Source of the DNA: Escherichia phage JL22
DNA: 64,000 bases
Sequence record: ON018986.2
Direction: 5' to 3' (one strand)
Position 1 is the first letter of the stretch. Each line of letters opens with the position of its first letter. Made by a program: the position numbers. Below are positions 25,701-31,700 of this stretch, piece by piece.

Positions 25701-28700
25701 CTTAATAGTGAATTAAATATCATTGGGAAACGGTATGTACTTTGTGATTTCCACACATACTGGTTTTTGTTAATTAAAATCCGCAGCTTGCTATAAATAA
25801 CGATAGTGAGCAGAAAATATGCTAATAGGCTATGTACGCGTATCAACAAATGAACAAAACACTGCTTTACAACGAAATGCCCTTGAAAGCGCAGGATGTG
25901 AGCTAATTTTTGAGGATAAGGCGAGCGGCAAAAAGGCTGAACGCCCTGGGCTAAAAAAGGTTTTGCGTATGCTTTCCAGAGGTGACACCCTGGTCGTATG
26001 GAAGTTAGATCGTCTTGGGCGCAGCATGCGTCACTTGGTTGTGCTGGTGGAGGAGCTGCGTGACAGAGGAATTAACTTCCGGAGTCTCACTGACTCCATC
26101 GACACCAGTACACCAATGGGGCGCTTTTTCTTTCACGTAATGGGGGCGCTGGCAGAAATGGAACGTGAGCTTATCGTTGAACGTACACGCGCTGGACTTG
26201 ATGCAGCTCGCGCAGAAGGTCGAATAGGAGGCCGTCGGCCTAAATACCAAGAAGAAACATGGCAGCAAATGCGTCGATTGCTGGAGAATGGCATCCCCCG
26301 TAAGCAGGTTGCAATCATCTATGATGTTGCTGTTTCCACGCTTTATAAAAAGTTTCCTGCGTCATCATTTCAATCCTAAACCTTGGTTTAAGAGAACTTG
26401 GCACAAGCGGTGAAAAGATCCCCCTGTTGAGCACGGCTAACACATGGAGTGCACGCCAGACTTTCAATGGTGGGATCACCGGGGCGCTGGCGGGGAACGC
26501 CGACACCGCGACGAAATTAAAAACAGCCAGAAACATTAATGGCGTCAGGTTCGATGGTTCGGCTGACATTAATATCAATACTCTGGTATCTCGCGGTCGC
26601 GTAACGGCCCTGGAGGCGAATGCACAGGGAACATCCGGGATTCAGCTGTATGAGGCATACAACAATGGCTACCCTTCCCCCTATGGCAATGTGCTTCACC
26701 TTAAAGGTGCCACCGCTGCTGGCGAAGGTGAGTTATTCATTGGCTGGAGTGGCACGAGCGGTGCCCATGCGCCCGTACATATCCGTTCGCGGCGGGATAC
26801 TGATTCTGCCAACTGGTCTGAATGGGCGCAGGTCTATACGTCAAAAGATTCAATTCCCGGCGTCAATGCCAAAGGGGATCAGGACACCTCTGGTAATGCG
26901 GCTACAGCGACCAAGTTGCAGACAGCATGTACTATCAATGGCGTCTCGTTTGATGGTTCTAAAAACATTGAGCTAACGGCGGAAGATTTAAATCTTGAGC
27001 AAACCGTAGAATTAGCCGCAGGAGCATTACAGAAAAACCAGAACGGCGCAGATATTCCGGGAAAAGATACCTTCACCAAAAATATTGGTGCCTGCCGCGC
27101 ATATAGCGCATGGGTGGATATTGGTGGCGATAGTCAGGTCTGGACAACTGCGCAATTTATTTCGTGGCTGGAGAGTCAGGGGGCATTTAACCATCCTTAC
27201 TGGATGTGCAAAGGCTCATGGGCTTATGCAAATAATAAGGTCATTACAGATACAGGTTGCGGAAATATTTGTCTTGCAGGTGCTGTGGTGGAAGTTATTG
27301 GCACTCGCGGCGCAATGACCATACGCGTTACTACTCCGAGTACGTCCAGCGGCGGCGGAATCACTAACGCTCAATTCACTTATATTAATCATGGTGATGC
27401 TTATGCTCCTGGCTGGCGACGAGACTACAACACGAAAAACCAGCAGCCTGCATTTGCTTTAGGGCAAACAGGAAGCACTGTCGGAAATGATAAAGCTGTT
27501 GGCTGGAACTGGAATAGCGGGGTCTATAACGCAAATATTGGTGGCGCATCGACATTAATCCTCCACTTCAATATGAATACGGGGAGTTGCCCTGCCGTAC
27601 AGTTCCGTGTGAATTACAGGAACGGCGGTATTTTTTATCGTTCAGCGCGTGATGGTTACGGATTCGAAGCTGACTGGTCAGAAATTTACACCACAACACG
27701 TAAGCCATCAGCGGGAGATGTTGGTGCATATACGCAGGCAGAATGTAACTCAAGGTTTATTACAGGTATTCGTCTTGGCGGTCTGTCATCCGTTCAGACA
27801 TGGAATGGTCCCGGCTGGTCTGACAGGTCAGGTTATGTCGTTACGGGTTCAGTTAACGGAAACCGTGATGAATTAATTGATACAACTCAGGCAAGGCCAA
27901 TTCAGTATTGCATTAATGGGACGTGGTATAACGCGGGGTGTATTTAACGATGATGCACTTAAAAAACATTACTGCTGGCAACCCTAAAACAAAAGAGCAA
28001 TACCAGCTAACAAAGCAATTTAACATCAAATGGCTTTATTCAGATGATGGAAAAAACTGGTATGAGGAACAAAAGAATTTCCAGCCAGACACATTGAAAA
28101 TGGTCTATGACCGTAACGGCGTTATTATTTGTATTGAAAAGGATGTTTCAGCAATTAATCCGGAAGGCGCAAGCGTCGTTGAATTACCTGATATTACAGC
28201 AAATCGCCGGGCTGATATTTCGGGTAAATGGATGTTCAAAGATGGCGTAGTGATAAAGCGAACTTACACCGAGGAAGAACAGAGGCAGCAGGCAGAGAAT
28301 GAAAAGCAAAGCCTGTTGCAACTTGTCAGGGATAAAACCCAACTGTGGGACTCACAGCTACGGCTGGGCATCATTTCCGATGAGAATAAACAGAAATTAA
28401 CCGAGTGGATGCTATATGCGCAGAAGGTCGAATCTACAGATACCTCCATCCTGCCAGTAACGTTTCCAGAAAAACCGGAATGAGGAAAGGCCCGGGATCG
28501 GGCCTTAATTAATATCTATAAGCCCAACAAATAAGGGCTAACAATTTTGTTAATTTTCTCTGGATATAATGCATGTGCTTTAATATACCTGAAGTTATAT
28601 TAAAGAGCGTCATGTAAAAATTAAACCAATCAATTAAGTCTATTTTCAATAGACAAATCAAAATTTTTAACAGATATGTATAGAAATGGCAAGCCATAAA

Positions 28701-31700
28701 TTAATAATGACATCCTTAATAAGCCCAAAGAAACACTGAATAGATAAAATATAAATTATTGCATCCCAAAATATAGAAAGTAGTGGCAATCTTGCAACTT
28801 ATTATTAATACAATATTGACATCCCTTTAGTGCTCAGTTTAAAATTAATATTTGTGTTTACATTGTGCGTTGGTTTAGTTTAGCAGGAACGCAGTAACAC
28901 ACTGATGCTTATTGTTTTAATTATAATGTTGATATATAACCATAGAAACCAAAAATATAGGCAGTTGCAATATGTTATGTTACTTAATAGCTATTCACTT
29001 TGTCATCTTTGGGAATTCAAAAGCTCTATTGAGCTATTGGATAGCTGAAGTCATCAGGCGTGAAAAAATGGATGTTTGGCGACTATTAAGAGAGAAGAGG
29101 CAGCGCAATCGGAATTTCCTTTTCTGGTGGAGATTGGCTAATGAAATGCATATTAATGGTAATAAATTACATAAGAAAGCAGCCAAAAAATTAAACAGTA
29201 AAATAATTAACAAATTTGGTTGTGAAATTGGATTGGGCGCAAATATTGGAAAAGGGTTAACAATTCCCCATCATGCTGGAATTGTTGTTCATTTTGCTGT
29301 TGATGCTGGTGAAAATCTGGTGTTACGGCAGAATACTACCATTGGACAGATAGATGGTGACATGCCTGGTTCAAGAGTAAAAATTGGTAATAACGTTGAT
29401 ATCGGAGCTAATTGTTGCATCATTGGATTATCACGTAAAATTGGGGATAATGTAAAAATAGGTGCAATGTCTTTTATAAATAAAGATATACCATCGAACT
29501 GCACATATATTACTAAAAAGAGCGGTGTTGTATTGTATAAATAGAGTACATAAAGCCATCAATATTTCTATCGATGGCTTTATCTTTTTATTGCGGGGCG
29601 ACTGGCCACTCAACATCCGCTGCTACTGCTGTATCAACACGATTCAACAATACCCGATATGTCTTCCATGCAGTCAGTAACGATGCCTCTTCCTCCGTCG
29701 CAATATCCAAATCTACGGCATCCTGAAGTGGCGCAATATGCTCACTGGCCATCTGCATCAGGCTGTTTTTTGTTTCTTCCGCCTTCCGGATCCGGAACAG
29801 TTTTTCTGCTTCTGCATCTTTCACCCAGGCTGTGCCGTTCCACTTCTGAAACTCCCCTTCCGGGGATAACCAGGTGACATTTTCCGGTAATGGGCCAAGT
29901 TCAGAAATAAATAACGCGTCGCCGGAAGCTACGTCATAGACGGTTTTTCCCCGATGGTCTTCAACGAGATTCCACAATGCCTCATCACTGTTGAAAACGG
30001 CCACGAAGCCAGCCGGAATATCTGGCGGGGCAATATCGGTACTGTTTGCAGGCAGACCTGTATGAGGTGGAATGTATGCATCACCTTCACCAATAAACTC
30101 ATTGGTTCCAGCCAGTAGATTATAAATTTTTATGGTCCGTGATTGTTCACTCATTCTGAATGTCATTATGCAAGCCTCACAATATAGTTAAATGCGATGT
30201 TTTTTACGGTGTTTTCTTCGTTACCCGTAGCGTTAACGGTGATGGTGTGTCCGTGGGGACCAATAATGACAGAATGGGCATGAGCACCAATGCCGATAGT
30301 GTGGTTATGGGCACCGATATATACATTGTGAGCATGCCCTCCTGCGCTCGACGTGGTACCAGTACCTAACGCAGCGTTATAACCGGCTGATACACCATTC
30401 CCCGCGCCAGTGTGACCAACAGGTATATTGTGTGAATGATTTCCAGCGCTATTCGTAGTTTTTGTGCCATAATCAAATGAACTGGTCGTTTTAGTACCGT
30501 AATCAAACGACGATGTGGTTTTCGTCCCCAAATCCGTACTGGATGCACTGGCGCTGTGGGTGTGCGATTTAATGCCGTCCTGTTCCTGAGACAATACTGC
30601 ACGACCACTGGCGGGCTTGCCCTTAATCGTCCAGCTACGCATATCAGGGATCACACCTGACGGATAAGCGGCTGCAAGTTTCGGGTATGCAGATTTGTCA
30701 AAAGTCTGCCCCTGCATCAGGGCATAACCAGACGGAACGGTATCTGATGGCCAAGGGATCGGTGCGCCAACCGGATAAAGTTCATGCGGCGAAATATACA
30801 GCGAATAAACAGAACCGTCCGTTAATCCTTCCGGCTTATTAGCAGAATATGCTGGTGAAGTATGAATCGTTACGCTGGCATTACTGGTATAATCCCATTG
30901 AATATTTACACCAGTCGCATAATTTCCAATAGCAACGTAAATATCGTAAGTGTCACCAGAAGTATTGACCCACGCAAAATTTGTAAACCCTGCCGATGTG
31001 CGCTGCCATAAAGCACCAGTAATCCCCTTCGGATTACCGTTACCTGCACGCAAAACAAGTTCAGATATACCTGCCTGTTGAGGTGATCCCACGTTAAATC
31101 CCGCGCCACCAATCAACGTAATTGAAACAACAGAACTTGCCTGCGGCATGGTTACAGTTGCCAGCTTGAACCATCCTGCACCACCACTAAAAGACATTGT
31201 TGTGGAGTTGATTGTGCCTATAGACCGTGGGTTAAGTTCAATATCTTTAGAACCATCAAACGAGACGCCATTGATAGTACATGCTGTCTGCAACTTGGTC
31301 GCTGTAGCCGCATTACCAGAGGTGTCCTGATCCCCTTTGACATTGACGCCGGGAATTGAATCTTTTGACGTATAGACCTGCGCCCATTCAGACCAGTTGG
31401 CAGAATCAGTATCCCGCCGCGAACGGATATGTACGGGCGCATGGGCACCGCTCGTGCCACTCCAGCCAATGAATAACTCACCTTCGCCAGCAGCGGTGGC
31501 ACCTTTAAGGTGAAGCACATTGCCATAGGGGGAAGGGTAGCCATTGTTGTATGCCTCATACAGCTGAATCCCGGATGTTCCCTGTGCATTCGCCTCCAGG
31601 GCCGTTACGCGACCGCGAGATACCAGAGTATTGATATTAATGTCAGCCGAACCATCGAACCTGACGCCATTAATGTTTCTGGCTGTTTTTAATTTCGTCG

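Follow-up and report, generated by a model that had tools for sequence, protein, structure and literature searches.

An acetyltransferase-like gene inside the Cin-invertible tail-fibre segment of the P1-like phage-plasmid JL22 and its probable transfer with a fibre-tip module

Escherichia phage JL22 (sequence record ON018986.2) was analysed over a window of 64,000 nucleotides (nt), by which the whole stretch of DNA under analysis is meant. The subject here is the C segment, the Cin-invertible tail-fibre region within that window, and a gene it contains for a left-handed beta-helix (LbH, or hexapeptide) O-acetyltransferase-like protein. The features of the locus are collected in Table 1. The region combines a serine invertase gene, two inverted cix sites and two opposed sets of fibre-tip and chaperone genes, which is the composition of a Cin/Gin-type segment, and both cix sites are positioned at the outer ends of the inverted repeat. 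Matches to P1-type cix sites in shuffled sequence numbered zero, as did those expected by chance. With the crossover point placed following the P1 annotation, the C segment extends from 26384 to 31825. The JL22 switch resembles the C segment of P1 and the G segment of Mu in its cin, cixL and cixR, its inverted repeats of ~0.6 kb, its two opposed Sv-U sets, its LPs-R-Sc context and the occurrence of both orientations. Approximately 12 kb around the switch was 99.9% identical to the E. coli plasmid NZ_CP041922.

Table 1. Features of the JL22 tail-fibre switch and of the DNA between U' and U, in window coordinates
Feature	Coordinates	Strand	Basis and remarks
cin, serine DNA invertase	25819..26379	+	Pfam Resolvase 4.7e-51, HTH_7 2.3e-18; ~91.5% nt identity to the P1 cin region
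Inverted repeat, left arm	26373..26974		602 nt, 99% complementary to 31235-31836
cixL crossover site	26376..26396		Exact match to P1 cixL core; left boundary of C segment 26383/26384
Sv', silent alternative C-terminal tail-fibre part (P1/Mu type)	26384..27947	+	Open reading frame 26427-27947; collinear with P1 Sv'
U', tail-fibre assembly chaperone of the silent set	27950..28483	+	Pfam Caudo_TAP 5e-36; start as annotated in identical plasmids
GC-rich hairpin from the P1 U'/U spacer	28487..28506		Folds at -15.1 kcal/mol; T-run interrupted by left junction of insert
AT-rich leader, no conserved open reading frame	28511..28971	+	GC fraction 0.28-0.32; P1-like plasmids only
Candidate sigma-70 promoter, TTGACA-18-TAAAAT	28816..28845	+	11/12 consensus matches
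LbH (hexapeptide) O-acetyltransferase-like gene, intact, 190 amino acids	28972..29544	+	Elsewhere annotated serine O-acetyltransferase; only intact open reading frame in block
Block common to P2-like prophages (acetyltransferase, U, last ~200 codons of S)	28980..30779		94-96% nt identity to three prophage loci (L004, L006, L007)
Hairpin between convergent acetyltransferase and U genes	29550..29583		-16.8 kcal/mol on + (z -3.4), -20.5 on - (z -6.9)
U, assembly chaperone of the expressed set, P2-like prophage type not P1 type	29588..30166	-	Caudo_TAP 3.5e-42
S, tail-fibre gene (Sc + expressed Sv), mosaic of P1 body and P2-like prophage tip	30166..33186	-	Start from identical plasmids
Inverted repeat, right arm	31235..31836		Pairs with left arm
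cixR crossover site	31813..31833		Compared with P1 cixR sequence; right boundary of C segment 31825/31826
R, first gene of late tail-fibre operon	33198..33632	-	Open reading frame; collinear with P1 R
LPs, late promoter driving R-S-U	33663..33681	-	Gap-free alignment to annotated P1 LPs, 2 differences in 71 nt

The segment measures 5442 bp, compared with 4256 bp in P1, 4007 bp in P7 and ~4265 bp in D6, so that it is longer than the 4.0-4.3 kb of the known systems; this agrees with the original prediction, made from the sequence of the window, of ~5.5 kb here against ~4.2 kb in P1. The additional DNA lies between the two chaperone genes, where a gap of 1104 bp (28484-29587) replaces the 28-bp U'/U spacer of P1, P7 and D6 and holds a third, non-fibre gene. 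This block has a GC fraction of 0.28-0.37 between flanks of ~0.45-0.54. The acetyltransferase gene had been proposed to lie in such an AT-rich block between U' and U, co-oriented with the silent Sv'-U' set and convergent with U and S, and its coordinates, size and orientation were all borne out by the map of open reading frames (ORFs). Similarity to P1 breaks off at 28510 and resumes at 31235, and the gene is therefore absent from P1; it is likewise absent from P7 and D6.

At its left end the insert meets the remnant of the P1 U'/U terminator. The junction reads CGGGCCTTAATTTTTA in P1 and CGGGCCTTAATTAATAT in the window, and the T-run of the terminator is broken at this point, from AATTTTTA to AATTAATAT. 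In a search of E. coli genomes the leader that follows was found at 66 plasmid places and at no chromosomal place. Both hexamers of the candidate sigma-70 promoter within it were invariant in five P1-type copies differing otherwise by up to ~7%, and the earlier suggestion that the gene's own upstream region may give expression is thus matched by a predicted promoter. On the plus strand a T-run (ATCTTTTTATT) stands 3' of the stem of the hairpin that separates the acetyltransferase gene from U, and this hairpin is likely to be the terminator of the acetyltransferase gene. Atypical composition, absence from P1, P7 and D6, and a promoter and terminator of its own, both predicted, are the marks of a moron. 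No Rfam family matched the leader at gathering score or with a convincing E-value, the sole overlap being cyano_tmRNA at 28472-28646 (12.5 bits against 70, E = 1). A 62-codon minus-strand ORF at 28509-28697 was considered and rejected as a gene; it matched no Pfam or PHROG family and is broken by indels in the plasmid pO111_2.

The 190-amino-acid (aa) product was classified by profile searches. It matched 22 LbH families in NCBIfam, led by EpsC (NF041874, 72.9 bits, E 2.5e-20), CysE (TIGR01172, 60.7 bits, E 1.6e-16) and WcaB (TIGR04016, 56 bits); the E-values of these three span 2.5e-20 to 3e-15, while the scores remain far below the respective curated cut-offs of 150, 210.65 (equivalog) and 194.65. 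LacA and Maa were among the weak matches, and Pfam Hexapep, at 24.1 bits, fell slightly below its 27-bit cut-off. Thirty-one solved LbH acyltransferases were matched at E <= 1e-3. Across 21 aligned family sequences His100 is invariant and position 85 is always Asp or Glu; His100 aligns with the catalytic His of soybean serine acetyltransferase, and we take the two positions to be the equivalents of His158 and Asp143 of CysE. These alignments point to membership of the LbH acyltransferase superfamily with a conserved catalytic dyad. The match to phrog_2154 covers nearly the full length (E 1.9e-84, residues 13-190 on profile positions 3-181 of 185), and the protein appears to be an acetyltransferase of the CysE/WcaB type, as had been proposed, with phrog_2154 as its true family.

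Of the curated relatives, EpsC and WcaB are the closest in kind. Their models span 146-168 residues against the 190 aa of the JL22 protein, they too are without an N-terminal SATase_N domain, and WcaB carries a similar HH motif. The JL22 protein differs from them in that it scores 56-73 bits against cut-offs of 150-196 and that its N-terminal ~80 residues are specific to its own family; WcaB and EpsC are encoded in polysaccharide clusters, whereas genes of the JL22 type stand in a phage tail-fibre context.

The name given by the Prokaryotic Genome Annotation Pipeline (PGAP), serine O-acetyltransferase, implies another function. A genuine CysE enzyme, carried as an auxiliary metabolic gene that boosts host cysteine synthesis, would account for this name, for the TIGR01172 match and for the best matches among solved structures, which are serine acetyltransferases (E 3e-13). 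These structural matches are confined to the LbH part, however, at residues ~56-181, and to the shortfall against TIGR01172 is added a score of 37 against 397 for PRK11132, a second CysE model. No Pfam match to SATase_N (PF06426) was detected in the protein. In the alignment to the PDB sequences a gap stands opposite the His of the GDRHP serine-binding loop, and the 21 family sequences differ from one another in this loop (columns ~146-160). The protein stops directly after the beta-helix; the C-terminal tail of CysE binds CysK, and no tail of that type is present here. The persistent linkage to tail-fibre genes described below also argues against a metabolic role. A true CysE was therefore rejected on domain, cut-off and motif grounds, and we regard it as very improbable. 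Because of the sub-cut-off scores, the missing SATase_N domain, the non-conserved loop and the end after the helix, the public name is very probably an over-annotation.

The origin of the gene was sought in the expressed arm of the switch, which is a mosaic. U is 98% identical in amino acid sequence to the tail-fibre assembly (tfa) protein of an O104:H4 prophage, compared with 45% over 66 aa to U of P1. Residues 30-685 of S are 96% identical to S of P1 and residues 825-1035 are 96% identical to a prophage fibre tip. Where P1 has its own type of S-U arm, JL22 has one of the P2-like prophage type. The nucleotide identity of 94-96% over the block shared with P2-like prophages, together with the prophage type of U and of the tip, indicates that the S-U arm was probably replaced by a module of fibre tip, chaperone and acetyltransferase. 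Such a replacement would have placed the acetyltransferase gene within the part inverted by Cin, with U' on one side and U on the other. On this comparison of sequences the gene appears to belong to a module with the S-U arm, and not with the S'-U' arm with which it is co-oriented.

Two further observations concern this arm. Residues ~686-824 of S matched none of the P1 or prophage fibres examined, which makes three parts in the mosaic of this fibre. On the minus strand at 29625-29823 there is a match to Rfam RF02111 ('IS009'), a putative small RNA of E. coli (192.7 bits, gathering score 117); it lies wholly inside the U/tfa coding sequence, and what this family captures may be a conserved part of prophage tfa genes and not an RNA in its own right.

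The copies of the gene in P2-like E. coli prophages (cluster P0001) share ~90% aa identity and 89.9-91.5% nt identity with it over the gene, and have the identical convergent arrangement with tfa and fibre tip. They differ in lying after the tail gene gpU, in having no invertase and in their upstream DNA, a different region of 157 nt with a different promoter-like site (10/12). The first ~36 codons (28972-29080) are also highly diverged: compared with the prophage allele (L005-L007), synonymous divergence (dS) is ~2.9, or saturated, over these codons and 0.17-0.24 over the remaining 155. This step suggests that recombination took place within the gene, with a breakpoint after ~36 codons. The C-terminal 34 residues of a diverged prophage allele (L012) are identical to those of the window protein, and a second breakpoint near the 3' end of the gene is suggested.

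Linkage of the three parts was also apparent in other phages. In a second group of P2-like prophages (L012, L015) they have diverged together, the acetyltransferase being 68%, the chaperone 84-85% and the tip 62% identical. The IMG/VR set comprised 80 loci, of which 76 had enough downstream DNA; in 68 of these 76 a convergent tfa gene lay no more than 90 nt away, a pattern seen in acetyltransferases that range in identity class from 99% to 43%. Citrobacter phage phiNP (46% aa identity), E. coli phage 613R2 (35%) and Hafnia phage yong2 (35%) are organised alike, their acetyltransferase gene facing tfa and the fibre gene convergently, and the phiNP fibre tip is 76% identical to the window tip. 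Genes of the 54%-identity class are located directly after a tail-fibre gene and a DUF4376 gene. In a Xenorhabdus bovienii prophage (L019/L020, 7001-8393) a homologue of 46% aa identity forms a two-gene unit with Glyco_transf_25 (GT25), a glycosyltransferase of the type acting on lipopolysaccharide (LPS) or lipooligosaccharide, between the integrase and a tail-fibre gene. These data suggest that the linkage of the acetyltransferase with fibre genes is old.

Other neighbours were seen at individual loci. Three P2-like prophages (L012-L014, 6617-7605) carry a chaperone fragment and a gene for a class I S-adenosylmethionine-dependent methyltransferase between the acetyltransferase and the functional tfa, a second cargo gene in the same slot. 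One family member (L108, 7286-8224) is near a gene for an omptin (OmpT-like protease) and a remnant of a P22-tailspike head-binding domain, and four others (L008-L011, 5662-5803) have a hok/gef-type toxin gene just upstream.

Among 5426 complete E. coli genomes the acetyltransferase gene was present in 530, at 599 places, 533 of them chromosomal and 66 on plasmids. The chromosomal copies inspected (O157:H7, O104:H4 and strain E2865) were all in P2-like prophages, between gpU and the convergent tail-fibre chaperone gene, and further matches were listed in O26, O111 and O103 strains. Of ~468 genomes with P1-like baseplate genes, 65 (~14%) carry the insert. The gene is under purifying selection: the ratio of nonsynonymous to synonymous divergence (dN/dS) was 0.11-0.21 against diverged copies, with dS up to 2.3. 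The window copy has an intact ORF, and the idea that it might be a pseudogene was rejected on this evidence.

A non-functional hitch-hiker, kept only by its position between two essential fibre modules, would fit the multiply frameshifted pseudogene on one plasmid (L025), from which it follows that the gene is dispensable. It would fit also the record H54, where no gene is annotated beneath the match, and the published remark that the purpose of the gene is unknown (PMC9603915). We consider it highly unlikely, given that dN/dS remains at 0.1-0.2 over such distances, that the catalytic residues and the promoter are conserved, and that an undamaged ORF is kept at almost every one of the ~600 E. 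coli places.

Both orientations of the enlarged segment are represented among public plasmids: two share the orientation of the window (L023, L026) and three are inverted (L027, L028, L025). The insert is 100% identical to that of the window in L023, L026 and L027 and 99.4% identical in L028. As both orientations are found with identical inserts, enlargement has not put an end to inversion of the segment. After inversion the gene is located 488 nt downstream of U' and is sense to the late R-S'-U' transcript from LPs, and because the P1 U'/U terminator no longer has an unbroken T-run some late read-through into the insert is plausible.

In a P1-like lineage that includes phage vB_EcoM-Ro157c2YLVW (NC_050153) and the plasmids pO111_2 (NC_013370) and pF1273-3, lydC, cin, Sv' and the greater part of U' have been deleted, so that the acetyltransferase gene adjoins lydA directly; the lineage is common in Shiga toxin-producing E. 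coli (O111 and O157 loci inspected). Ro157c2YLVW has the same gene at the same position, with 98.4% aa identity. Through the loss of cin and Sv' this lineage is locked on the prophage-type S-U fibre, and its gene stands in a fixed, non-invertible context, unlike that of JL22, where the switch is complete. The gene is frozen antisense to S-U in all three, yet it is intact and under purifying selection.

These data bear on a model in which expression depends on orientation. Sense transcription would come from LPs only when the segment is inverted, antisense transcription would suppress the gene in the present orientation, and modification of the receptor would thereby be coupled to the fibre of the progeny. 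The topology is as the original prediction described it, antisense to S-U now and sense downstream of S'-U' after inversion; read-through from U' is plausible, and both orientations occur in nature. The dependence of expression on inversion is doubtful, however, since the conserved promoter and terminator invert along with the gene. In addition, 533 of the 599 E. coli copies are in non-invertible prophages (P2-like where inspected), the lineages without cin keep the ORF intact in the frozen antisense state, and the gene is modular with the S-U arm, whereas co-transcription would be with the S'-U' arm. We therefore consider the model unlikely. The proposed coupling of receptor modification to fibre switching is also doubtful, because cin-deleted lineages keep the gene intact, and the position of the gene in the switch appears to be incidental, because its promoter and terminator invert with it, most copies are in non-invertible prophages and the frozen antisense lineage has retained it.

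The explanation that we favour is that of a passenger gene, or moron, encoding a small cytoplasmic LbH acetyltransferase with its own predicted promoter and terminator. It would be one part of a three-part module (fibre tip, fibre chaperone and acetyltransferase) exchanged among temperate myoviruses, and such a module would have taken the place of the C segment's S-U arm in an ancestor of this lineage of P1-like phage-plasmids. Expression in the lysogen would probably come from the gene's own sigma-70-type promoter in either orientation of the segment, and late read-through from S'-U' in the inverted state may occur but would be secondary. The substrate may be an envelope glycan sugar made on the cytoplasmic side of the membrane, with intermediates of the LPS core or of the O-antigen or enterobacterial common antigen type as the most plausible candidates. 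O-acetylation of such a sugar would alter the surface of the lysogen, a form of lysogenic conversion, and could block the adsorption of phages that use the receptor concerned. That the gene is a passenger belonging to a shared module is highly probable, and the explanation as a whole is on balance probable; acetylation of a glycan is put forward tentatively, as a serious possibility.

For a glycan substrate speak the nearest curated relatives, EpsC and WcaB, which are acetyltransferases of exopolysaccharide and colanic acid, the GT25 LPS-type glycosyltransferase beside the Xenorhabdus homologue, and the receptor of phiNP, which is the LPS outer-core GlcII (PMC6456863). There is also a known prophage enzyme with which the gene may be compared. 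NeuO, an LbH polysialic-acid O-acetyltransferase of the CUS-3 prophage in E. coli K1, modifies the capsule, varies between an on and an off state and protects against K1 phages (PMC3046976, PMC9659370). Both are prophage-borne LbH acetyltransferases, with a role at the surface polysaccharide that is documented for NeuO and that would be expected by analogy for the JL22 protein. With no NeuO chain among the PDB sequence matches at E <= 1e-3, the JL22 protein was not assigned to the NeuO/OatWY subgroup; it is of the CysE/WcaB type, and its gene is without the heptanucleotide repeat tract of neuO. Repeat-based phase variation of that kind was rejected, as no tandem repeats were present in 28400-29650, and any on/off control would have to come, hypothetically, through DNA inversion.

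Several findings weigh against the favoured explanation. The leader and the first 36 codons derive from a different allele than that of the prophages. A homologue of 48% identity is located in a protelomerase prophage, away from fibre genes, and others are on a plasmid-like Pseudomonas contig or stand alone in a Cronobacter chromosome; the end of the late operon could be a general slot for cargo, and this by itself could account for the linkage with fibre genes. As to the enzyme, phrog_2154 is listed as of 'unknown function' and no curated family cut-off was reached in NCBIfam. An AlphaFold2 monomer model built on the 21-sequence alignment was mediocre (pLDDT 68, and 41-65 in the LbH part), and the top Foldseek matches of this model in the PDB, all serine acetyltransferases, were non-significant (E >= 0.028), so that the structure adds nothing beyond the sequence searches. 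The frameshifted L025 copy belongs with these points.

Some of the same evidence would fit an acceptor outside the envelope glycans, for instance a small molecule or xenobiotic, a pool of nucleotide sugars or some part of an incoming phage. The enzyme would then be a hitherto undescribed defence or fitness factor unrelated to receptors. The acceptors of LbH acetyltransferases are very diverse, and the weak matches to LacA and Maa are in keeping with this; the prophage sites are cargo positions, the phiNP copy adjoining hicAB and a dinI-like gene; and some homologues are not adjacent to fibre genes. No family among the defence-protein models of PADLOC-DB 2.0 was matched at E <= 0.1, however, and no model for a xenobiotic acetyltransferase (CatB/Vat) was among the NCBIfam matches, while the closest curated relatives act on polysaccharides and the Xenorhabdus homologue has its GT25 neighbour. 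We regard this alternative as a lesser possibility, on the unlikely side. A more specific form of the glycan reading would have the enzyme O-acetylate the receptor of its own fibre tip, an LPS-core or other glycan, bringing about self-exclusion of phages with an identical type of tip in lysogens and in lysing cells; in P1-like elements the Cin switch would add a layer of late sense transcription in one orientation and antisense interference in the other, so that one inversion would set both the cell surface and the fibre of the progeny. This we consider improbable.

The presence of the gene in a P1-like phage-plasmid was already known. A 'serine acetyltransferase' (sacF) has been noted with tfa in JL22, 'reason still unknown' (PMC9603915), the correspondence with the present gene being made from the description in that paper, and in phiNP the gene has been counted among the 'fitness' cargo (PMC6456863). 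Dozens of public records carry an annotation of it, and literature searches on prophage LbH acetyltransferases beside tail fibres, on defence genes at P2 hotspots and on the CP-933T acetyltransferase returned no functional study. The finding is real but fairly ordinary, with a mildly unusual placement; what is new is the origin of the module, the deep linkage with fibre chaperones, the continued inversion of the enlarged segment and the case against the CysE name. Another name on these plasmids may be mentioned separately: the homologue of the P1 baseplate gene bplA (window 33711-35980) is called 'bleomycin hydrolase' by PGAP, which seems to be a further wrong name passed on between records.

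Seen only as an oddity of the P1 switch, the gene is of modest significance. In kind it would be, by analogy, a prophage-borne moron that modifies the cell surface. The annotation as serine O-acetyltransferase, with its implication of cysteine biosynthesis, is very probably wrong in hundreds of records. Should LPS or another envelope glycan prove to be the substrate of the enzyme, ~10% of sequenced E. coli, including strains of O157:H7, O104:H4, O26, O111 and O103, would carry an uncharacterised surface-modifying gene of lysogenic conversion, and phage susceptibility, serology and immune recognition could be changed by it. The tight and ancient linkage would then represent a receptor-binding module that travels with a receptor-editing enzyme, which would be relevant to the prediction of host range and to phage therapy.

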